A DNA stretch of 64,000 bases, taken from NCBI GenBank assembly GCA_049999805.1, contig JBNGIO010006274.1:205818-269817 (forward strand), in the 5' to 3' direction. This stretch comes from Folioceros fuciformis. Lineage: Eukaryota. A model generated the notes under the pieces. That model was not told where the DNA came from, ran no database searches, and saw only the letters and a list, made by a program, of their open reading frames with translations. Shown piece after piece: positions 6,475-57,600 of the stretch. The position numbers and the translations under genes are program-made. Positions within the stretch are counted from its first letter, which is position 1; each line of letters begins with the position of its first letter.

Positions 6475-6874
6475 NNNNNNNNNNNNNNNNNNNNNNNNNN
6501 NNNNNNNNNNNNNNNNNNNNNNNNNNNNNNNNNNNNNNNNNNNNNNNNNNNNNNNNNNNNNNNNNNNNNNNNNNNNNNNNNNNNNNNNNNNNNNNNNNNN
6601 NNNNNNNNNNNNNNNNNNNNNNNNNNNNNNNNNNNNNNNNNNNNNNNNNNNNNNNNNNNNNNNNNNNNNNNNNNNNNNNNNNNNNNNNNNNNNNNNNNNN
6701 NNNNNNNNNNNNNNNNNNNNNNNNNNNNNNNNNNNNNNNNNNNNNNNNNNNNNNNNNNNNNNNNNNNNNNNNNNNNNNNNNNNNNNNNNNNNNNNNNNNN
6801 NNNNNNNNNNNNNNNNNNNNNNNNNNNNNNNNNNNNNNNNNNNNNNNNNNNNNNNNNNNNNNNNNNNNNNNNNN
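6475..6874. other. Assembly gap (N run)
   Basis: N run. Further gaps at 48001-48100, 51862-51871, 55300-55399 and 56540-56639. Confidence 0.99.
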
Positions 6875-11100: not shown

Positions 11101-11789
11101 ACAAAGTATGCTGTAAACTGTAGCGACCAATGGCACACAAGACGATCTGTTACGACTGCAGTGTCCAGTGATGAGAAAGAGTAAGCGCCGTAGAAGGATG
11201 GGACAGGTGCCTCACAGTATGGAAGCTAGCCAGTAGCTCCTCAGCATCTGCAGCTTGGAACCACCCGGCAGAGGAGGCACTCTACGCAGCGGTGAGTGAA
11301 AACACGGTTACTGCGATTCAAAGCCGTCCTGCAGCGACGACGACATGCACAGGCCCAGCATACCTTGAGAGAGAGGAGTAGCACCATAATCGCTGGCCGT
11401 AGACTGACATCTTCCTTCACAAGGCAGACCTGCAACAAGAATTGTGTGTGTGGTATGGTAACCTGCGAATGACGAGGAAGCAACACGGGTCAAGATTTCC
11501 GAAACACACCAGCCGGAAGAGCTGCACGATGTTCGGAGTCACCGATGGCACCAGGCCGCTGGTCACGGCACGATCGACCAGCCTGTGCACAAGAGAATCG
11601 GAGTTAAGGTGATGATGGAGCACCGTGCAAAGCTGCGGAGTGCGGACGTCAGAAGAGGTACCGAGAGAGGTGGACGAAATCTTGCTTGAGATCTGGTTTT
11701 TGAGCACCAGGGCCCGGAACGAGCTTGGTTAAGAGGGAGGCAACCAGATCCGAGAGTCGGTCGTTAAGCTGCGGCTGTGGTGCTACCAT
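8172..11789 (-). CDS. PIAL: E4 SUMO-protein ligase PIAL1/2-like (SP-RING/MIZ zinc finger), multi-exon
   Basis: Exons encode RPAIMVLLLSLK, SAGWFQAADAEELL, SILVNGRGLEKRT, DSGPQVPTDVTHFVRQGLNVLQVIGDF, RISTPVKGALCKHHQ / CFDYDSFLEINKRRPAWRCPYC (SP-RING) and VVDVMVFPDGSW, plus a SIM-like PVIDMS. Confidence 0.9.
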
Positions 11790-11907
11790 GGTGGGTGCTA
11801 TTGCCGAGCGGGGGCTTCACGAAGTTCCGTAGTAACCGATAGGTCTTAAGGCGGGTGGGTGGGCAAGGCTACGACGAAGTGAAGGCTGTCCAACCCGTTG
11901 GTGCAGG

Positions 11908-13011
11908 ATGCCTCCGTATAAGATGGAGATGGAGTGCACGGCCTACTGCAGGTAGGGATTTCATGGCACGGCAGGACAGGGCCGTTGCTGGGGGAATTTG
12001 TGACGTATGTGCTTGGCCTGGGGTGATGGCAGCTGTGGCTATTGCTGCAAATGGGAGTGGGGGATCAAGCTTCCAGGAAGTTGGTATCTTGGTGTCTGCC
12101 CGTGGTGGATTCCTCTGAGAATACGGCGGCGTAAGAAGGGTGTGTACACGGACAAACGAGTGCCTTTGGTGGCCAAGTAGGTGCTTTCTTTGCCAAGGAT
12201 TCGCAGGTGCCTGCACGGTGGCATGCTGTTCGATGACCAGATTGTTGTTGAAGCAGGTACTGGACAGCCACAGGACTGACAGGAAGTCCATACTATGGCT
12301 ACACATCCAACGGAAGATACCCTGGCCAGGTGAGCACTATCAGAGAGGGCTTGCAAAGAGACGGAATTGCCTTTCGCCTTTCCCGGTTTTTGACGACGAC
12401 ACCGCCTCTGGACGCATTGCAGGCCCGACCAGCAATACTGTCTGGGCTGAGCGTGTCACAGTACCAGAAGATTCCGGGCCGTTTGTTGCTCTTTCCTTGG
12501 CGTTTGCTTCCCAGGCGGGGTTCTATTGCTGCAGATACTGACTACTATCCTTTCGGCACACGAATGTTCATCCCAGGCTACGGTTGGGGCGAGGTAAGCT
12601 TGGTATGATCTGATGGGGCTGGGAGAGGAGAGGATCTGGCATTCTGAACAGCCTCTGCTGCCATGTTGTGCAGGTGGAGGACCGAGGGGCTGCCATCAAG
12701 GGCCCCAGAAGAATCGATCTATACCACCACTCGCATCAAGCAGCCCTGAAATGGGGGCGTCGAAAATTGGAGGCATGTCACTGCACCTTGTTGTGCCAGA
12801 CTAGTCTTACCCATCCCTGCCCTGTGCGGTGAAGGTGGAGATTCTGTGCATAGTGGTGTGACCTCAAGCATGTTGTTCATGTGGTGCGACGGGTTAATTG
12901 CAGGTGCTGATTGTGCTTCCAGGGCATAGCACTCTCGACTGTCTCCGGATTCCTCGACCACTGAAGGCAGTACTGAAAGGGCTCAACTGGCTGAGATGCT
13001 TGCTTTTCTGA
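11908..13011 (+). CDS. 3D (Asp-Asp-Asp) domain protein, bacterial MltA-like lytic transglycosylase fold; 6 exons, ~212 aa
   Basis: Exons 11908-11951, 12033-12176, 12257-12329, 12423-12593, 12674-12772 and 12904-13011 splice in frame to MPPYKMEMECTAYCSCGYCCKWEW...YYGYTSNGRYPGQ...GSIAADTDYYPFGTRMFIPGYGWGEVEDRGAAIKGPRRIDLYHHSHQAALKWGRRKLEVLIV...LLF*. The last intron has a GC donor. Confidence 0.88.
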
Positions 13012-13118: not shown

Positions 13119-13998
13119 CTATGAGGATGTGAGGGATTGGGCTTGCAATAATGAAGGGACTCGGTTGATGAGAGGAGCTTGGCGGGCCAGTTCCTTGCTT
13201 GCCGCAATCACGCTGGGTGTGAGCGGATGCGTGGCGGAGGGTGCAAACTGTGAGTGCGGGAGAGAGCTGGCCAGCGCCAGGCGCGCAGGCACGATGTTCT
13301 GCCACCACATCTCGCTCAACAGCCTGAAAACGAGGAGCCAGTATCGTCGGTCTCGTTCGATGGAGAAGAGCGCGGAGCCATGCGTGGGGGTGTACACCCA
13401 CAGGTGAAGCCAGGGACGGTCCAGGACCTCCAGCAAGCCCTGCGCCTGCGGCATGTAATAGAAGGGCACAGAGGACCAGGGAGCCTTCTGGTACGGACAC
13501 TTCACCTCCAGAATGCCTCTGTCCGGGAGCAGGCCGTCCGGGGACGCTCCCAGCCAGTCTAGCAGGGGGTCGCCTTCCTTATACACGCAAAAGCCCAAGC
13601 TACGGTCCACCTGCTGGCCGGTGGCGGTCTCGTAGTGTGCCACCCCCTCCGGCTCGTGGAGGCTGCCCCACGCCATAGCCGCGTTGCCTTCACCTGGAAC
13701 CGGGGCCCCAAACACCTTCTCCCGCCACAGGGTCGCGCGCCCGTCCCTCCACATGCCCAGCGCCGACCCGAAGGAGCTGGCCGTGATCCGATCCCGCCGC
13801 ACAGCGTGCCATTCCGCACTTCCTTGTTCCATGTTCAGCATGTCTTAGCAGACGCAATTGGTTGCAGTCAGCCACCTGAGAGATGTTAGGGGTATGGAAT
13901 CAACAGGTAAATGGCATCACAAGGAGGAGCGGACGAGAAGCACCTTTACCCGTGCAGAACGGTCGTACCAGGCGCCATCGCAGACTAGCTGTCAACAT
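13119..13998 (-). CDS. YqaJ-like viral recombinase / lambda-exonuclease-family nuclease (At1g67660-like), probable N-terminal organellar presequence
   Basis: QGSAEWHAVRRDRITASSFGSALG, AMAWGSLHEPEG, WLGASPDGLL, GILEVKCPY, YYMPQAQGLLE (PD-(D/E)xK core). A short first exon 13950-13998 (MLTASLRWRLVRPFCT) splices in frame to the exon starting at 13843. Confidence 0.9.
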
Positions 13999-46577: not shown

Positions 46578-48998
46578 TCAGGAGAGCAGAGGCAGGTCCA
46601 GATCCACGACCTCGCTGGATCTGGACGTAAAGGCGGCGAGAGGCAAGCTGGGAGGAGAGGGCGAGAATTCGAAGGGCAGGGCGGGCAAATCGGCCTGGCC
46701 GAGCAGGATCTTGACCACGTCAGGCATGGTGGGGCGCAACGCAGGTATTCTCTGTAGGCAGAGCAGGGCTAGCATGATGCACAGAGTGGCCTGGTCCTTG
46801 GAGAAGCGGCCCTGGAAATTGGCGTCCACTAGATCCAGCACATTCCCGGCCTGCGCCAAGTGCCTGGCCCAGGAGATGAGGTTGGCCCGCTCCAGCTCCG
46901 CGATAGGGGACGCCATCACCTGCAGCGGCCTTCGTCCAGAGATGATGACGAGCATAAGCACGCCGAAGCTGTAGACATCGCTCTTCTCCGACAACACGCC
47001 CCCGCCACCGTACTCGGGGGCAACGTAGCAGATGGTGCCGCGCATGCTCGGAGTGCTACTCACTCCTCTGCTCAGATCCCCGGAAAAGTAATCCCGGCTG
47101 CGCGTGCGAGCGCGGGTTCTCGTCCTCCGGCTGCTGTTGTTGCTTCTGAGCTCCGCACTGTAGGACACCTCGCTGCTGGCGTCGTCCCGATCCTTGTCCC
47201 GGTCCCGGCTGCCCCCTCGCTTCCTACTGCTTTTCTTTTCTTTCTCCTTCCCGGCGCCGTGCTCCGCGGCTGTGAAGTCCTCCTTGTTCCACCACTCCCT
47301 TGGAACCCTGCCACCCGCCTTGCCTTTGGCGCCGTCCCCACCGCCGCTGCTCCGAAGTTGGCCGCTGTACTCATCCTTCCACCACTCCCGCCTGTGCTTT
47401 CTCGCCTTCCCCTTATCTCTGCTGGTCCTGTCCTTGTCCTTGCCCTTGCTGCTCCCTTCCAGATGCTCGTCCTTCCACCATTCTCTTCCCTCTCGCCTCC
47501 CGACTTCCTTCCGCTTCAGCGGTTCTTGGATCAGCTCCCCACTGAGATCCACCCAGCCGTCCGAGCTCCTGGACCCATCCCTGCGCCGATCCTTATCCAG
47601 TCCCTTCCCAAAGTCGTGCGAGTTGAGATCCACGCTGTTGTCATCCATCCAGGCCCCACCCGCCTCCCTGGCTCCGCGTGCGGCCCGCCTGGCGGACTCA
47701 TTGCTCCTCCACTCCAAGATGTAGTCCCGGATGCTGAGCTCGCCGCTGCTAGGCACGCCCTCACTCTTCACCTCAACCCTCGCCCGCCTGGACGGCAAGG
47801 TCTCGTCCTCCCCCCTGCCGTCCTCCGTGCTGAAGTCCACCGTCTCGGTGTCCGCCTCGGTGCGAGTGTCCCCTGCTTCCCCTTCCAGCTGCAAGTAGCG
47901 CGTAAGAGGGGAGTCTGCCACTGGAGTGGCAACGCTGGCGGGAGTGCCCTCCGCCTGCTGCTGCTGCTGCATTGCCGCTGCTAAACCTATTGCTGCTGCT
48001 NNNNNNNNNNNNNNNNNNNNNNNNNNNNNNNNNNNNNNNNNNNNNNNNNNNNNNNNNNNNNNNNNNNNNNNNNNNNNNNNNNNNNNNNNNNNNNNNNNNN
48101 CCTCCCGCTTGCGCAGCCGCCGCACTTTCTCCCTGGCAGCCCTCTCGTAGCGCATCCTCTCTTTCTCCAAGGCCTCCCGCTGCAGCTCCTGGCTCTCAGC
48201 GTCCGGCACGGCGGGCTCCAGCTTGAGGCGGGCCAGCCCAAAATCCGCAATGCGGGCAGAGAAGTCGGCGTCGAGCAGAATGTTGGAGGGTTTGACGTCG
48301 CCATGGATGATAGGCGGGTCACACTGGAAATGCAAAAAGGCGAGGCCTTGCGCGGTGTCGAGGATAACCTTGAAGCGAGTCTCCCAGGCGAGCGTGACCG
48401 GGTAGTCGTCGTCGAACAGTGCCTCCTGCAGGCTGCGATTCGGCATGAAGTCGTAGACGAGGAGGCGTCTGTTGCCATCGACGCAAAAGCCGAGCAGCGT
48501 CACAATGTGCGGGGAGGCGACGCGGCCGATGACAGACACCTCGTTCTGGAACTCACGTTCCCCCTGCAGCGACGAGGCGTCCAACTTCTTCACGGCCACA
48601 GCCTGGCCATGACGCAGCTGGCCGCGGTACACAGTCCCGAATCCGCCCTGCCCCAAGCGTTGGGCCTCGTTGAAGCCTGCCGTGGCCGTCTTCAATTGCC
48701 GATACGAGAAGCGCCTGAGCTGCTTGAGCCCGGCCAAATCATAAGGATTGGTCTTGCTCGTCTTGAGGCGTTGGTAGACGAGCAGCAGCAGAAGCAGCAG
48801 CAGCAGCAGCGCAGCCGCGCCTCCGGCGATGCCCGCGCCCACCACCACCCTGCTGCTGCTGCTACCGCTGCTGGACGCGGAAGAAAGCCCGGCATCGCCA
48901 CTCCCCAGCTGGCGCTGCCGCGAGGGCATGGTGCGTGCTGCACCCCCCTCCCCCCTCGCTGCTGCTCTCTTGATCTTCCTTCCTCTGCCGCTATGCAC
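46578..48998 (-). CDS. Receptor-like Ser/Thr kinase, RLCK-XI / At4g25390-At2g45590-like; intronless, large insert in kinase domain
   Basis: N-terminal TM segment, GQGGFG, VAVK, IIHGDVKPSN, ADFGLARLK, a long charged insert, then SSTPSMRGTICYVAPEYGGGG and KSDVYSFG. The start may be Met at 48929. Spans a 100-N gap. Confidence 0.92.
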   Translation of the reverse strand: MHSGRGRKIKRAAARGEGGAARTMPSRQRQLGSGDAGLSSASSSGSSSSRVVVGAGIAGGAAALLLLLLLLLLVYQRLKTSKTNPYDLAGLKQLRRFSYRQLKTATAGFNEAQRLGQGGFGTVYRGQLRHGQAVAVKKLDASSLQGEREFQNEVSVIGRVASPHIVTLLGFCVDGNRRLLVYDFMPNRSLQEALFDDDYPVTLAWETRFKVILDTAQGLAFLHFQCDPPIIHGDVKPSNILLDADFSARIADFGLARLKLEPAVPDAESQELQREALEKERMRYERAAREKVRRLRKREXXXXXXXXXXXXXXXXXXXXXXXXXXXXXXXXXXAAAIGLAAAMQQQQQAEGTPASVATPVADSPLTRYLQLEGEAGDTRTEADTETVDFSTEDGRGEDETLPSRRARVEVKSEGVPSSGELSIRDYILEWRSNESARRAARGAREAGGAWMDDNSVDLNSHDFGKGLDKDRRRDGSRSSDGWVDLSGELIQEPLKRKEVGRREGREWWKDEHLEGSSKGKDKDRTSRDKGKARKHRREWWKDEYSGQLRSSGGGDGAKGKAGGRVPREWWNKEDFTAAEHGAGKEKEKKSSRKRGGSRDRDKDRDDASSEVSYSAELRSNNSSRRTRTRARTRSRDYFSGDLSRGVSSTPSMRGTICYVAPEYGGGGVLSEKSDVYSFGVLMLVIISGRRPLQVMASPIAELERANLISWARHLAQAGNVLDLVDANFQGRFSKDQATLCIMLALLCLQRIPALRPTMPDVVKILLGQADLPALPFEFSPSPPSLPLAAFTSRSSEVVDLDLPLLS

Positions 48999-50596: not shown

Positions 50597-51690
50597 CTAG
50601 ATCTCGCAACGTCTAGTTGACCTAGAGGGAATAGGGATGTAACCAATATTCATACTATTAATAGCTTGCATCATGTACAATGATTTCCTCTTCAAGAGAG
50701 GGTACACGGTCTTAGTTTTTGAAAGAATGCGCCAAGTAGTCTTCAGCTTTCCAAACGCACGTTCAACAACAATTCGACTAGATGAGTGCTTGAAGTTGAA
50801 ATAATTCTGCAATTTTGTCATGCCTCTCCTAGGATAAGGTATTACAATCCACGGTAAAGTGGGATACTTTGCATCGCATAGGAATACTAGTAGAAGAAAG
50901 CACGGGTGCTCCTTGGAGCACTTGTCCCATTTATGCTTTCTTATAAAAATCAGAATTGGAAAGAATTCAGGCATTGATGATAGACCCTGGAAAGCCATAA
51001 AACACATCGAGAAATTCCATATCCATATTAACAATAGCCAGTATGCACACACTGTAGTTGTGGTTGCTATCGAAGTAATCAGTAGCCATGCGCTTGGAAG
51101 GCAACTCAATGGACACGTGAGTCACATCGATAGCACCCACACAATTTAGCAAGCCCTGGTGAGCTGTGTATGTTGCTTTAGTTCATTCCAAGGCATCGAC
51201 TTCTGGCCAGGAAATATGCTTTCTTGATGCCCTGTGCAAAGCCTTCACAAATCAACAAGTGAGTTTAGAGTTAGTGCACTCAACTAAGGCCGAAAAGTTC
51301 TCCTATTGACTTCAAAGAGTCACTTGTAGCCACTCTTCTTAATGCCACTGCAACTTGGGTACCCACTTGGAGCTTTCGATTTGGAATACCTTGGAAAGAA
51401 ATGTGGTGTCTTTTTTGTTAAAACTATATGAACCAAGTCACAAAGATACATGAAAGATTGAGGACCCATTCGGAAGAACTTTGCAAACCATGCACCATCG
51501 CCATGTACAATTGCACCACTGTAGAGCTGCCACCACAGTAAACACCTTTGCATAATGTACCATTCTCTCATAACGCGTCTCCTCCTACATAGAGCAGACC
51601 TTTGGACAAGAGAAAGAAAATACATGAGGAGTAAGTTGTGGTCCATGCTTTCCAATTCTTGGTCTTTCTTATAGTTCCGACAAGACAAGA
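50597..51690 (-). mobile_element. Degenerate PIF/Harbinger (DDE_Tnp_4, HARBI1-like) transposase
   Basis: Fragments in different frames: WFAKFFRMGPQSFMYLCDLV, NCVGAIDVTHVSI, FLDVFYGFPGS, FNFKHSSSRIVVERAFGKLKTTWRIL. Frameshifts present. No convincing TIRs found. Confidence 0.85.
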
Positions 51691-51765: not shown

Positions 51766-53643
51766 GTGTGTACGCCACGCTGAACATGTGCAAGGACCTA
51801 TACAGATGTGGGTATGACAAGAGGTGTGGCAATGAAAGAGGAAAAGGAAGCAATTCTCCTANNNNNNNNNNTGACAAGAGGTGTGGCAATGAAAGAGGAA
51901 AAGGAAGCAATTCTCCTAGGGTCCTGCATCATGAGCGCGCAAGGGCTCCCGCAACAATTCATGTTGTCCACCCACTTCACGCTTCAAACCTCCATATTCA
52001 AACACTTGAGACAGAGGGAATGTAGTTGTGTATTATGGTAGAAAGCCTCAAGGCCTTACTCTTCCACATAGGACCGGTCACCAACAACGTGTCGGTTAGC
52101 TAGCAACGTTGATTACACCTAGAAGTCGATAAACCGAAACAAACGTATTTTTCATGGCCATGAAAAGTGGTTTCGTGGTTATGGCTTTCGAGAAGTAGCC
52201 AAAAGTTAGGAGCCCATGGAAAGTGGCTCTAATAGGGTAGGCTCGGCAACGACTTGGTGAAGTCGCTCACACCAAGTCGCTCACTAAGGAGCAAATTGGT
52301 GAGGCACAGTTGCAACGTGAGCTAGTGAGGTCGGCTAGGACACTTGTGTGGGCGTGGGCTGGTTGGCCCGTGCACAGGCTAGTGAAGCGGGGTTGGGGCA
52401 TGAGCATGGACTGTAAGGCTAGGTTAGATTGTAGAGGATGGTGCTGTGATTAGGCCATGGAAGCTAGGTGCGCACTAGGTTATTGATTGGTGCTCAAGCT
52501 ATGGCTGGGCATGGCTAGGGCTTGCTTGAGCTGGACCGTAGAGGTCGAGGGTGAGCTTAGCCAAGCTCGGGCTAGGCTGGGCTACAAAGGTTGAACATGA
52601 GCTAGGCTTAGCCTCTTGCCACCATTGAAGTGATATTGGAAGGAGGATGAGCACGAGTTAGGCCTAGGCCTCTTGGTAGCATTAAAATTATTTGGAAGTC
52701 CAATCATAATCATTGTATCAAATGATATGTGGGGTGGGTGTTTCAAAGTAATGCACAATATTATATCCGTAAGTAAAATTATATAAAAGTATTACATATT
52801 AGAATCCATATCATCTATCATCATAAATTGTAGCCCTAAACAAACCCTTCTACACCCTAGTCGTAAAAGCAATGAGCATGCACTAAACTAGAGAAATTAG
52901 AGATAGTTGGCTAGTTTATCACTACATGCTACCAAGTAGCCTCCCCCTTCACGTTTGGGGCATAGTAGGCCTAGATATTGTATATTTGAAAATACCATAA
53001 ATGGGCATTTAGACACATATAATCAATAAATCATATATACCTTGATTTTGGGAGTGTGCACTCGATTCAAGGTTATCAGTATATATGGATGGCTATATGA
53101 TGTGTAAGTACTATATCGAGTTATCCTATTAGTCTATATTATGACGGAAATGAATGGAACAATATTTTTATTGATCAAACATATATGCTTACAACAGGTA
53201 TTGGTGTCCACATTCAAAATCATTCATTATGTTGTTCCTAATCTCTCGTGAGCAAGAAATTTGATTGTCGTGTTACTTTTGACACTTTTGTGATAACTTG
53301 GGTTCTTCCCCCATCCTAGACCCCCATTGCATGCCCACTCTTTCGTTTCTAGCTGCTAGCACCTCCATCATTTAGTGTTGTTTCTAATAGTCGGAACCTA
53401 AGCTACATTGGTGGTCATCTTCTTTATTGCACGCAAGTGTAATATCTGTAAACGCCTTGCACATCAATATTAGGCACCTTGCTTCTCTCAAGGAAAAGGC
53501 CCTAATCCATGAAGGAAATGTGGTTAGGCAAGATGGTTGGCAAGGTTTGAGGAGAAGTTAGGGCGTGTTTTTGTTGAACAAACCATAAGCATAGTACTAA
53601 CTATGCATGGTACTTGCCCATGCATAGTAGGTCCCATTGGTAT

Positions 53644-54609: not shown

Positions 54610-57600
54610 ATTGAAATATAAAATAAAAAAAAAGCCTAAGCTAGAGGGTAGAAGAATATGGAGTAGTGATCACTCCTTACTTAGATAAAGATTCTTAAAT
54701 AATAATGTAGAGGCCCACAATTGAGTCCCTAGCTTAACGAATGATAAATTGCTTTCGATGGATGAGTAAGAAGAGGCCTTTACTGCTTTCGATGGATGAG
54801 TAAGAAGGAGCCTTTGCTTTAGCCTATATAGAATTGCTAACAAAGCTCTTCGTAGAGATAGGAACACAAGATAATGATTGATGATAGTTCTTGGTCTAGC
54901 CAAATATATAGCTTGGAGGCTAACTTTAACTAGGCAATAGCTAATACAGGTATCCATAAACACCACACATTTCTAAATTTTGACATATAAAATCTTTCTA
55001 ATTTGAATTATTCACAGTAGATGGATTTATTAAATACTAATTTGAATTATTATTGGGTGGTCCATTTCTTAATATTAATCTCTACTATTGTTGTTTATTG
55101 TCCATGGTTTAGTATTATTTTTATTATTACTCATTGCTTAGTTTTTAATACTCATTTCAATTCATATTAGTAGGTTCAACACTAATTTCATCTATGATTG
55201 GTTGGTCCATTTTTTAATGCTAATTTCAACTAGTATTGGCAGGTCTTTGTCTTCCCACATATTAGAAGATCTCTAATTTTAACCAATCAGGGTTAATGGN
55301 NNNNNNNNNNNNNNNNNNNNNNNNNNNNNNNNNNNNNNNNNNNNNNNNNNNNNNNNNNNNNNNNNNNNNNNNNNNNNNNNNNNNNNNNNNNNNNNNNNNC
55401 ATATTAGAAGATCTCTAATTTTAACCAATCAGGGTTAATGGATTTCTTAACTACTAATTTCATTTTATGGTGGATTCTTTTACTACTTTCAACTACTAAT
55501 AGTTAGTGGATTTTTTTAATATTAATTTCAACTATCTATAATTATTGTTGGTCAAAATTTCTTGAAATAGCATTGATCGGTTCAAAACGAGAGCCATTAG
55601 AGGTCCTCATTTACGACAACCTTGGAAATTATGGGATTTTCTAATTATTAATTTCACCTGCTTGTTAGGTGGGTCTAAGGTTTAGGGTTGCCTTCTTAGC
55701 GAGGTCGATGCATATTTTCTTGCTTATTGTGCAAGTCAAAGCAAGTAGTGCGCTCAACATGCGTATAGATACCCATCTTGTGTTTTGTATTATTGCGATG
55801 AGTAGATGGATATATAGGATGGTATTTATTTCACAAGTCCTCATATTGCGGCCATCTTGGGGACCTCACTTATATGAATGTGTCTGCAAGGCAAATGAGA
55901 TTTTCATGCTAGTGAAAGAATAGAGTAGCGAGTCATCTTCTTAGATATATGGCCATCTTCCATGTTGCACCCAAGTCTCATATCCATAAACCCTTTATGT
56001 ATGAATACTAGTCACAAGTCCAACATCCTATAGATATCGTGTAGTGTTGTTGATCGTAGGAACACTAAGGTTGTAGGAACACTAAGGTTCTTAACACAAC
56101 TTGGTGCTCAAGTGGATCACAAGGAACGAGGTAGGCTGCACTTAGCTAATCCTCATTCTCTAGATTGCACTTAGCTAAGTCCCATTATCTTGGAAGGAAC
56201 ATGTATAAAGTATTACCAATCAATTGAAGAAAGAACATGGAATTGTTGTTCATAACATGAAAGCTAAGACAATGATCTTCGATTAGTATTGAACAATATA
56301 GGTATTAGAAGAAGAAGCTTCAGTTGTCAAGTTAAGTCAAATATTGTGTCATGGAAGAGGACTTGCAAAACTTACTACTGAAAATGTTGGTGATCATGGT
56401 GAATGAAACATGTACTATTTTCATGTTAATTCGACTGACACGTAAATAATTTGTGATACGATGATTTATTTAGGGGACCAATGTAAAGAAAACGAAACTA
56501 ATAGCCCATTATTACTTGTTGGTTAGGACATTCTCACTCNNNNNNNNNNNNNNNNNNNNNNNNNNNNNNNNNNNNNNNNNNNNNNNNNNNNNNNNNNNNN
56601 NNNNNNNNNNNNNNNNNNNNNNNNNNNNNNNNNNNNNNNCCAATTAGAATTAACTTCGATGCTGACCTAGCTTAGCACTAAATTGGCCAAACTGGTAGTT
56701 TGTATGCATTCTAGAAGTAGTTTGATTGCATGATATTGTGTAAAGGAACTGTGTAAGAAAAGATCGGTTACCTCATGCTTGCATGTGGATATGACTTATA
56801 AAGTGTCTCAAAATTTATCAAAAATAATAGCCTCAAAGTAGTTTATCAAAAGTAATAGCCTCGAAGTAGTTCAAGTTATCCAATCTAGGCGGTTTAACCT
56901 CTCCGTAGCTTCCTCTATGTGAACTAGTACTACCTCGGGTCCATCTAACGACGAATGTTTAATTCTTTGGTAGTAAAAAAGTTTTGTACAATGATGCTCA
57001 ATGAAAATGCACTTGTACCACTTTCTATTGCTACATGGAGTTCTTGATGGCATTCATTTCAAAGTAGAGTGGTGTTGGAGGTGTAACCTTGGCCTTGCGA
57101 GAAAATTGTTAATTTTCTTCTAGGATAGATGCCTCCCAACTCAATGGCAAATTGGGTTCACATATTTTGTAGTGTCAAAAAACCTTTTATCCCTATATTT
57201 TGAAGCGTTTGTCCCTCGCGCAAACTACAGCCCTTGACCCCAGATTCTCAAATAACTGCCTAGTCTGAAAAAATGATGTACGTACATACGAATCATACGA
57301 TATTTACAGATTGGAGAACCCAAACGTTTGTTTGCGGATGACTCGATATGCGCGTCACACTTACGGTCAAGGCACCTACTCCCATAGACACGGGCTCACA
57401 TGTACCTTTTAGGGCCACGCGTATGTATCATTGCTCCCGCAATTCGACACGCAACAGCACCACATCATACGCATGCGTCACCCGTACGCCACGTATTAAG
57501 GCAAAACGATACCGACTCACAAAATTCATGGTCCGTGCTTGGAGTGGTGCGCGACCTGGTACTGCATTTTTTTTCGGCAAGGCAGAAAGTTGCACAAGAG

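Follow-up and report, generated by a model that had tools for sequence, protein, structure and literature searches.

A spliced nuclear gene of bacterial ancestry in Folioceros fuciformis encodes a leaderless, polycationic 3D-domain protein that may act on plastid peptidoglycan

The stretch of DNA analysed here, called the window throughout, comprises 64,000 nucleotides of the Folioceros fuciformis assembly GCA_049999805.1 (contig JBNGIO010006274.1, positions 205,818 to 269,817 of the forward strand), and carries on its plus strand, between window positions 11908 and 13011, a gene for a small protein with a 3D domain (Pfam PF06725). Six exons, joined by their coordinates, give 639 nucleotides that read in frame as 212 codons followed by TGA. 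Exon 1 (11908..11951, 44 nt) supplies the start codon, a short conserved N-terminus without a presequence, Thr11 and Cys14, and exon 2 (12033..12176, 144 nt) continues with Cys16, Cys19 and Cys20 and with a eukaryote-specific insert, the basic cluster of which (residues 44-51) is encoded at 12118-12141. The middle region common to the bacterial subfamily opens in exon 3 (12257..12329, 73 nt) and is completed in exon 4 (12423..12593, 171 nt), which also encodes Asp125 (codon 12534-12536) as part of the initial third of the 3D domain. The core of the domain lies in exon 5 (12674..12772, 99 nt), with Asp147 (12680-12682), the presumed catalytic Asp159 (12716-12718), His165 (12734-12736) and a WGRR motif (residues 171-174, 12752-12763); exon 6 (12904..13011, 108 nt) adds the last barrel strand, a eukaryote-specific C-terminal tail (residues 181-212) and the stop codon. 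The five introns measure 81, 80, 93, 80 and 131 nt, four of them with GT-AG ends and the fifth (12773..12903) with GC-AG ends. The start codon was placed at 11908 because an in-frame TAA stands upstream at 11833 and the sequence between the two is free of ATG.

This is a real, spliced nuclear plant gene. A 3738-nt contig from the public run X1, the library type of which could only be guessed to be RNA, matches the window with 0 mismatches and skips exactly the five introns: a skip of 11952-12032 agrees with the 3' border of exon 1, both borders of exon 3 agree with skips, and a skip from 12770 to 12902, taken with three ambiguous letters, fits intron 5. Since the gaps end in GT..AG or GC..AG, the contig is most simply a spliced transcript. 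It continues into both neighbouring genes and is therefore a merge of overlapping transcripts rather than one mRNA. Three further runs (X2-X4), from another organism, yielded only short matches of 90-95% to exons 2 and 6. Over its full length and free of internal gaps, the joined protein can be aligned with annotated proteins of Marchantia (72%) and of Sphagnum, Selaginella and Diphasiastrum (71% each), and counting those of Chara and Cryptomeria the end-to-end identities span 70-72%; this agreement validates the gene model. A first-pass annotation, made from the sequence alone, had proposed six exons encoding about 212 residues in a plant nuclear gene rather than a contaminant. Both the coordinate join and the exactly joined form in the X1 contig confirm the model, the motifs quoted at the time (Thr11, Cys14/16/19/20, Asp125, Asp147, Asp159 and WGRR 171-174) are all present, and five spliceosomal introns and plant-type neighbours speak for a nuclear gene; the splice junctions, which had been left to be checked, are all represented in X1, a run that can only be presumed to be RNA. 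Intron 3 (12330-12422, 93 nt) is in frame and free of stops, and an open frame at 12252-12608 runs through exon 3, intron 3 and exon 4. Retention of this intron would insert 31 residues and leave the frame intact; the X1 contig represents the spliced form only.

Pfam, fold and homologue searches were run on single exons and on the closest orthologue, P0001, rather than on the joined window protein. Exon 5 alone (33 residues) matches the Pfam 3D profile with 32.8 bits (E 7.9e-8), above the curated cut-off of 23.8 bits, exon 4 covers profile positions 2-20, and seven of seven full-length relatives score 50.4-62.5 bits, in agreement with the domain assignment of the first-pass annotation. Exon 4 retrieved 89 longer homologues, the best of which, P0001, has 211 residues and matches the joined protein along its entire length with 82% identity; a profile built from 96 family members matches Bacillus subtilis YuiC with an E of 2.4e-17. 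An AlphaFold2 model of P0001 (predicted local distance difference test score, pLDDT, 92.5; predicted template modelling score, pTM, 0.86) finds its best fold match by VIA-align in YuiC (Z 11.8, root-mean-square deviation 2.5, 96 aligned residues, 31% identity), with MltA close to it (Z 11.2, root-mean-square deviation 1.6, 88 aligned residues), and Foldseek matches the model to YuiC with an E of 7.5e-5. Expansin-type and other double-psi barrels score lower, at about Z 8. Judged by this model, the protein is a double-psi beta-barrel of the 3D (MltA/YuiC) type. A PDB profile match to a nucleolar zinc-finger protein (E 0.2) was dismissed as noise.

The YuiC structural study (PMC4499186) describes YuiC as a demonstrated lytic transglycosylase with a 1,6-anhydro product, which in vitro also cleaves chitin-type penta-N-acetylglucosamine (penta-NAG). 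According to the same study, D162 of YuiC is catalytic and equivalent to MltA D308, D151 (MltA D297) binds the sugar at subsite -2, D129 corresponds to MltA D261, and a Thr (YuiC T91, MltA T99) orients the catalytic Asp. In the window protein, Asp125 aligns with D129/D261, Asp147 with D151/D297 and Asp159 with D162/D308, at a spacing of 22 and 12 residues as against 22 and 11 in YuiC, and all three are invariant across an alignment of 28 eukaryotic sequences. Thr11 is likewise invariant and belongs to the first strand of the barrel; the fold alignment pairs this strand with YuiC from residue 81, a match at the level of the strand only. Across 426 aligned relatives, the Thr-Asp-Asp-Asp set is intact in 356. 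By alignment, then, the catalytic Asp159, the sugar-binding Asp125 and Asp147 and a putative Asp-orienting Thr11 are all kept, and the three signature aspartates stand as the first-pass annotation had read them. An intact active site in a fold with lytic-transglycosylase members suggests, by analogy, lytic transglycosylase chemistry.

A second constellation of conserved residues accompanies the active site. Cys14, Cys16, Cys19 and His165 are all present in 347 of 375 scorable relatives and all absent in 18; a mixed state occurs in only 10, several of them truncated or mis-spliced models. These counts come from related sequences and are not independent observations. Because the cysteines and the histidine covary across relatives, we infer that they form one unit, a Cys3-His metal site that is most likely a zinc site. 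Such a site would staple the first strand, which bears Thr11, to a segment six residues past the catalytic Asp159. Members without the site recurrently carry Ser/Asp/Ser and Arg in its place, in algal (P0195, P0205, P0209, P0342) and apparently bacterial (P0210, P0213, P0086, P0449) proteins alike, and from the sequences the metal site seemingly was swapped for a salt bridge more than once.

How does the plant protein depart from its bacterial relatives? The window protein begins 10 residues ahead of Thr11 and contains neither a signal peptide nor a lipoprotein anchor, whereas the bacterial members place 28-65 residues (median 43) ahead of this Thr, with a lipobox-like motif, by a crude pattern, in 33 of 66; a leader of this kind fits predicted periplasmic lipoproteins like MltA. 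The median net charge is +18 in eukaryotic against +3 in bacterial members, and reaches +21 in the window protein. Two segments are not found in the aligned bacterial homologues: an Arg/Lys-rich insert (residues 25-63, net charge +9) and the 32-residue C-terminal tail (181-212), which ends in a cationic amphipathic helix, placed at residues 194-210 in the P0001 model. The last 18 residues of the window protein have a hydrophobic moment of 0.46 and a net charge of +4; moments recorded for the tail helix span 0.41-0.50. Prasinophyte-type relatives (Prasinoderma, Pyramimonas and MMETSP records) lack the C-terminal tail, and their insert, at the same site, is far longer: it combines an Arg run with one or two hydrophobic, Gly/Ala-rich segments (hydropathy 1.7-2.3) downstream of it. 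The insert was modelled, with moderate confidence (pLDDT 75), as two helices of about 25 residues each, and may be a membrane hairpin; it is seen in P0328, P0344, P0186, P0189, P0195 and P0205. We infer that the insert and tail, like the putative hairpin of the prasinophyte type, are replacement anchors for the lost lipoprotein signal.

The phylogeny across bacteria and green lineages, a check proposed in the first-pass annotation, was built from 77 rows picked by hand from 465 proteins and 66 open reading frames (ORFs) of bacterial loci, 16 of these 66 being used. Eight long-branch rows were removed after a quick tree of all 77, leaving 69 rows for a careful tree whose bootstrap had not fully settled (correlation 0.988). 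In the careful tree, the 37 eukaryotic-type rows form one clade with 99/96 support (bootstrap / Shimodaira-Hasegawa-like approximate likelihood ratio test), beside a bacterial sister subfamily of 24 rows (94/92) and a root group of eight distant 3D proteins (100/99). Among the 37 are 17 named species, the window protein and five rows that are EukProt/MMETSP records or fall into one cluster with Prasinoderma; the remainder were counted as eukaryotic-type by their eukaryotic insert or tail. Two indels also back the clade: the insert that follows the Cys cluster and the C-terminal tail that most members have. Within it the window protein is sister to a transcript-like record (82% identity), among land plants, although internal resolution is weak. 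As the eukaryotes, algae included, form a single clade, we conclude that there was a single entry before the three green phyla split, in the ancestor of green plants or earlier.

The named bacterial relatives are mostly Thermodesulfobacteriota (Desulforhopalus, Desulfopila, Desulfocapsa, Desulfobulbus, Desulfosalsimonas, Desulfolithobacter and Desulfuromonas), together with one member of the Sumerlaeota, one metagenome-assembled genome (MAG) of the Planctomycetota and a few oddly labelled MAGs. No cyanobacterial member occurs among these named relatives, a set compiled without a direct scan of cyanobacterial genomes, and the PF06725 matches in a Synechococcus control represent the generic domain, not this subfamily. 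The type of relative suggested in the first-pass annotation, deltaproteobacterial rather than cyanobacterial, is thus the one found. On these sequence comparisons the gene stems from an ancient bacterium-to-eukaryote transfer, with an uncharacterised, mostly thermodesulfobacteriotal lipoprotein subfamily as its sister. Of the ancient horizontal acquisition claimed at first, the bacterial ancestry is supported by the tree, the introns and the plant context, and the framing around land plants and non-seed plants proved too narrow; confinement to non-seed plants is contradicted by orthologues in a conifer and two flowering plants.

The genomic setting of the sister genes was viewed in 80 GTDB loci (L001-L080), chosen as those most like a Desulforhopalus query and hence a biased sample. 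The gene order in Desulfobulbales runs from a class A penicillin-binding protein (PBP) gene (PBP1A, on the opposite strand) through mutL, the 3D gene and often a major facilitator superfamily (MFS) transporter to trmFO and a DnaB-like helicase. The 3D ORF was found in 66 loci, mutL in 60, trmFO in 53, PBP1A in 35 and the MFS gene in 19, with the 3D gene two genes from the class A PBP in 35 of the 80. This is conserved housekeeping synteny and points to no specific function. The neighbouring MFS transporter was considered as the muropeptide permease AmpG and rejected, no AmpG model being among its 15 NCBIfam matches, all of which fall far under the cut-off.

About two dozen green species have an annotated orthologue. 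The gene is present in the Prasinodermophyta (two paralogues in Prasinoderma coloniale), in the Chlorophyta (Pyramimonas obovata, Cymbomonas tetramitiformis and [Myrmecia] bisecta) and in streptophyte algae (Chlorokybus, Klebsormidium, Chara and Closterium, with Mesostigma, Mesotaenium and Spirogloea assigned by database prefix). Land-plant holders include liverworts (Marchantia, Riccia, Calypogeia), mosses (Physcomitrium, Ceratodon, Sphagnum), lycophytes (Selaginella, Diphasiastrum), the fern Adiantum and the conifer Cryptomeria, and identity remains at about 70% from Chara to the conifer. The flowering plants are represented by Tasmannia lanceolata and Colocasia esculenta alone, in word-seeded searches that leave absence elsewhere unproven. 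All named eukaryotic matches are green algae or plants, in a survey that did not scan red algae and glaucophytes directly. When 1.84 billion representatives were searched with a profile of 28 eukaryotic members, 13111 clusters matched at E <= 0.001, a figure that reflects the generic domain, and only 47 at E <= 1e-30; the subfamily is therefore small. A language-model atlas places it in a single cluster of 82 members, 78% of them eukaryotic and mostly Streptophyta. In the models of the Colocasia protein (P0185) and of P0109, 28 residues of the middle region and the amphipathic tail are missing and an extension is present upstream, and a Tasmannia isoform (P0099) has a divergent C-terminus. These altered flowering-plant copies could be annotation errors or cases of ongoing decay.

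The genetic toolkit for plastid peptidoglycan has been reported from bryophytes, lycophytes, gymnosperms, Prasinoderma and a few chlorophytes, with a patchy presence in angiosperms (PMC10784329). PMC10784329 and PMC12681378 together extend this range to streptophyte algae and ferns, the latter source stating that class A PBPs occur only up to gymnosperms, and PMC5741210 credits Cymbomonas with a complete peptidoglycan synthesis set, "uncommon in the Chloroplastida". The range of the 3D gene roughly follows this known range of plastid peptidoglycan, in line with the plastid-wall role raised in the first-pass annotation.

We propose the following model, to which we give about even credence: the protein would be a lytic transglycosylase acting on plastid peptidoglycan. 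The only peptidoglycan that these organisms are known to make themselves is a thin layer enclosed by the two membranes of the plastid envelope, and we favour it as the target because no other endogenous peptidoglycan is available and because the range of the gene roughly tracks the corresponding toolkit. The enzyme would cut the bond between N-acetylmuramic acid (MurNAc) and N-acetylglucosamine (GlcNAc) in the glycan strands, leaving 1,6-anhydro-MurNAc ends as MltA and YuiC do, and would thereby trim or open the wall during plastid growth, division or turnover. Upon its entry into the eukaryote, the protein would have lost its lipoprotein signal and gained the basic insert, about 15 positive charges and the C-terminal amphipathic helix, and the gained insert and helix may provide a replacement attachment to membrane or wall at the plastid envelope. 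A non-cyanobacterial origin is compatible with a plastid role, since most plastid peptidoglycan enzymes are reported to be non-cyanobacterial (Sato & Takano 2017, as cited in PMC7154730). The bacterial sisters, moreover, look like wall-side proteins, given their leaders, half of them with a lipobox-like motif, and the class A PBP gene two positions away in 35 of 80 loci.

Several observations weigh against a function at the plastid wall. Its weak point is access: the protein has no presequence or signal and hence no known route into the intermembrane space of the plastid, the known routes to which use N-terminal signals. The start codon lies at most 12 residues before the Thr in 34 of 43 eukaryotic proteins and within 25 residues in 41 of the 43. 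A cleavable presequence is excluded where cleavage would take off a catalytic strand, and an N-terminal plastid presequence is accordingly not possible in the same number of members, 34 of 43; non-canonical targeting may still apply. The window protein also lacks a hydrophobic segment (its highest Kyte-Doolittle mean over 19 residues is 1.0), and its net charge of +21 and its Arg/Lys cluster would equally suit a nuclear or nucleic-acid-binding protein. Moss, for its part, reportedly already has an unrelated MltB-type plastid lytic transglycosylase. The fold evidence comes from the model of P0001, a proxy for the window protein, and the co-occurrence with the toolkit was drawn from named database matches and published tables rather than from a genome-by-genome scan. 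Finally, Tasmannia and Colocasia keep copies, though angiosperms are said in PMC12681378 to have no class A PBP.

The same features invite other readings. The transferred enzyme may have been repurposed in the cytosol or nucleus, as an enzyme or scaffold for another GlcNAc-containing glycan or an anionic partner, with no link to plastid peptidoglycan; the lack of both presequence and signal peptide, the charge of +21 with an Arg/Lys cluster resembling a nuclear localisation signal, and the copies in Tasmannia and Colocasia all agree with such a fate. The fold is not strictly murein-specific, given the cleavage of penta-NAG by YuiC in vitro described in PMC4499186, and PMC12681378 offers a precedent in MurE, which angiosperms have recruited, by exaptation, to the plastid RNA polymerase complex. 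We nevertheless consider repurposing unlikely: the Thr-Asp-Asp-Asp set and the putative Cys3-His site are invariant throughout the green clade, the range roughly tracks the peptidoglycan toolkit instead of being universal in plants, and no alternative substrate is known to have a matching range. It is also conceivable that the protein is a cationic cytosolic lysin directed against invading bacteria, endophytes, symbionts or the ingested prey of phagotrophic prasinophytes, a role to which the missing plastid presequence would be no obstacle. Some phage endolysins cross the Gram-negative outer membrane by means of a basic surface and an amphipathic helix, and the basic surface and amphipathic, cationic C-terminal helix would aid the plant protein in the same way; the marked excess of positive charge over the bacterial sister (median +18 against +3) and a copy in the bacterivorous alga Cymbomonas point in this direction. 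The absence of a signal peptide, however, means no classical secretion, and it likewise weakens the idea of extracellular defence or symbiosis raised in the first-pass annotation. Slow evolution, with about 70% identity across streptophytes, is unlike that of typical immune effectors, and a lysin would leave near-total loss in flowering plants, which face the same bacteria, unexplained; on balance we hold this role to be improbable.

To the suspicion that the locus is an artefact, be it contaminating bacterial DNA, a newly inserted segment or a pseudogene in decay, we attach next to no weight. The domain is indeed overwhelmingly bacterial, as the 13111 clusters at E <= 0.001 illustrate, but five spliceosomal introns, a contig with the exact joined form, plant neighbours, an open frame with all catalytic residues, orthologues in about two dozen green species and a clade supported at 99/96 all speak against it. 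In a bolder version of the plastid-wall proposal, which we regard as a long shot, the host would control the plastid wall from outside, by a cytosolic, presequence-less, cationic lytic transglycosylase that crosses or permeates the outer envelope and cuts the peptidoglycan. The basic insert and amphipathic helix would mediate attachment to, or crossing of, the outer envelope, much as some phage endolysins reach murein; the peptidoglycan would be cut on a host schedule for plastid division, turnover or elimination; and the Cys3-His site beside the catalytic Asp could serve as a redox or metal switch. If true, this would represent a new form of host-to-organelle control and an import-independent route to the intermembrane space.

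Comparison with characterised relatives helps to delimit what is specific to the plant protein. YuiC (SpsC group, a stationary-phase survival protein of B. subtilis; PDB 4WJT, 4WLK and 4WLI) is, like the plant protein, a minimal MltA-type double-psi beta-barrel and its best match in both sequence and fold, with three aligned Asp residues and an orienting Thr to which Thr11 putatively corresponds. Unlike the plant protein, YuiC is secreted with a signal peptide, has different residues at the positions of the Cys3-His site, lacks the region of about 95 residues by which the first strand is separated from the Asp125 strand in the plant protein, and crystallises as a domain-swapped dimer. The NCBIfam SpsC model gives only 62-65 bits against a cut-off of 280, and the plant protein is thus not an SpsC equivalog. 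MltA of E. coli and Neisseria shares the barrel and the catalytic Asp (D308) with the plant protein (Z 9-11), and like it carries a second module in the stretch that separates the Thr strand from the first Asp, a topologically equivalent position. MltA is a larger protein (about 335-400 residues) with a large, unrelated domain B and without the Cys cluster, the basic insert or the C-terminal helix, and is tethered to the membrane beside the wall by an N-terminal lipoprotein anchor that the plant protein lacks. The closest relatives are the 3D lipoproteins of Desulfobulbales/Thermodesulfobacteriota, Sumerlaeota and Planctomycetota (P0052, P0037 and L001-L080), which show full-length homology at about 50% identity, have the putative Cys3-His site, middle region and 3D core in common with the plant protein, and form the sister clade. 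They differ in having a signal/lipobox leader, no introns, no basic insert or tail and a median charge of +3, and are themselves unstudied and without an NCBIfam subfamily model. The role proposed here for the plant gene, the cutting of plastid peptidoglycan that lets plastids divide, is reportedly filled by unrelated families, the MltB-type and DipM plastid peptidoglycan hydrolases of moss and glaucophytes. MltB-type and other enzymes, as well as DipM, are reportedly plastid-targeted.

The surroundings of the gene are of plant type and include, within the window, an At4g14310-type beta-propeller protein, a HEAT/TOG protein, an RRM protein, a PDDEXK_6 protein and a Harbinger-type DDE transposase, of which a DDE_Tnp_4 fragment lies at 50597-51121 on the minus strand. 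Immediately downstream, also on the minus strand, a single open frame of 241 residues (13119-13844) encodes a YqaJ-like viral recombinase/exonuclease (PF09588, E 2.7e-21), a further domain of phage or bacterial type amid plant genes. This frame and the 3D gene run towards each other, with 108 nt between their stop codons, and the X1 contig passes unbroken through both. Upstream, the contig skips a minus-strand intron at 11582-11660 (ends CT..AC, equal to GT-AG on that strand), next to which the presumed first exon of a divergent neighbour (about 11661-11789) shows an open frame with a Met near 11789; this exon gave no Pfam match. The start of the neighbour would lie about 120 nt from the ATG of the 3D gene, and the 5' ends of the two seem to overlap or at any rate to have been joined during assembly. 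Five runs of N (6475-6874, 48001-48100, 51862-51871, 55300-55399 and 56540-56639) mark assembly gaps in the window.

What, then, is new about this protein? The enzyme family is well known; the novelty lies in its eukaryotic form, which is leaderless, polycationic and apparently re-anchored. Databases name the plant members automatically as "3D domain-containing protein". In the full-text literature, we found no study of a plant or algal 3D-domain protein (supplementary tables, which lay outside this scope, could list the gene), the phrase "3D domain-containing" led only to work on Bacillus or Bacillus phages, and the Marchantia gene identifier Mp1g05360 was not found. The family goes unmentioned in the plastid-peptidoglycan literature examined, and it is not in the main text of a Physcomitrella paper on horizontal gene transfer that covers 57 families.

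Plastid peptidoglycan is established in mosses, ferns, conifers and green algae, and the plant literature searched deals mainly with its synthesis. The enzymes that open the wall for plastid growth and division are barely known, a gap that this conserved candidate may fill. Physcomitrium and Marchantia (MPTK1_1g05360), models in which knock-outs are easily made, carry the gene, and its peculiar features (no presequence, about 15 additional positive charges, a newly gained C-terminal helix) make the question of how the host gains access to the intermembrane wall directly testable. More broadly, the finding would enlarge the set of plastid-wall genes with non-cyanobacterial roots by one that was already present in the ancestor shared by all green plants.

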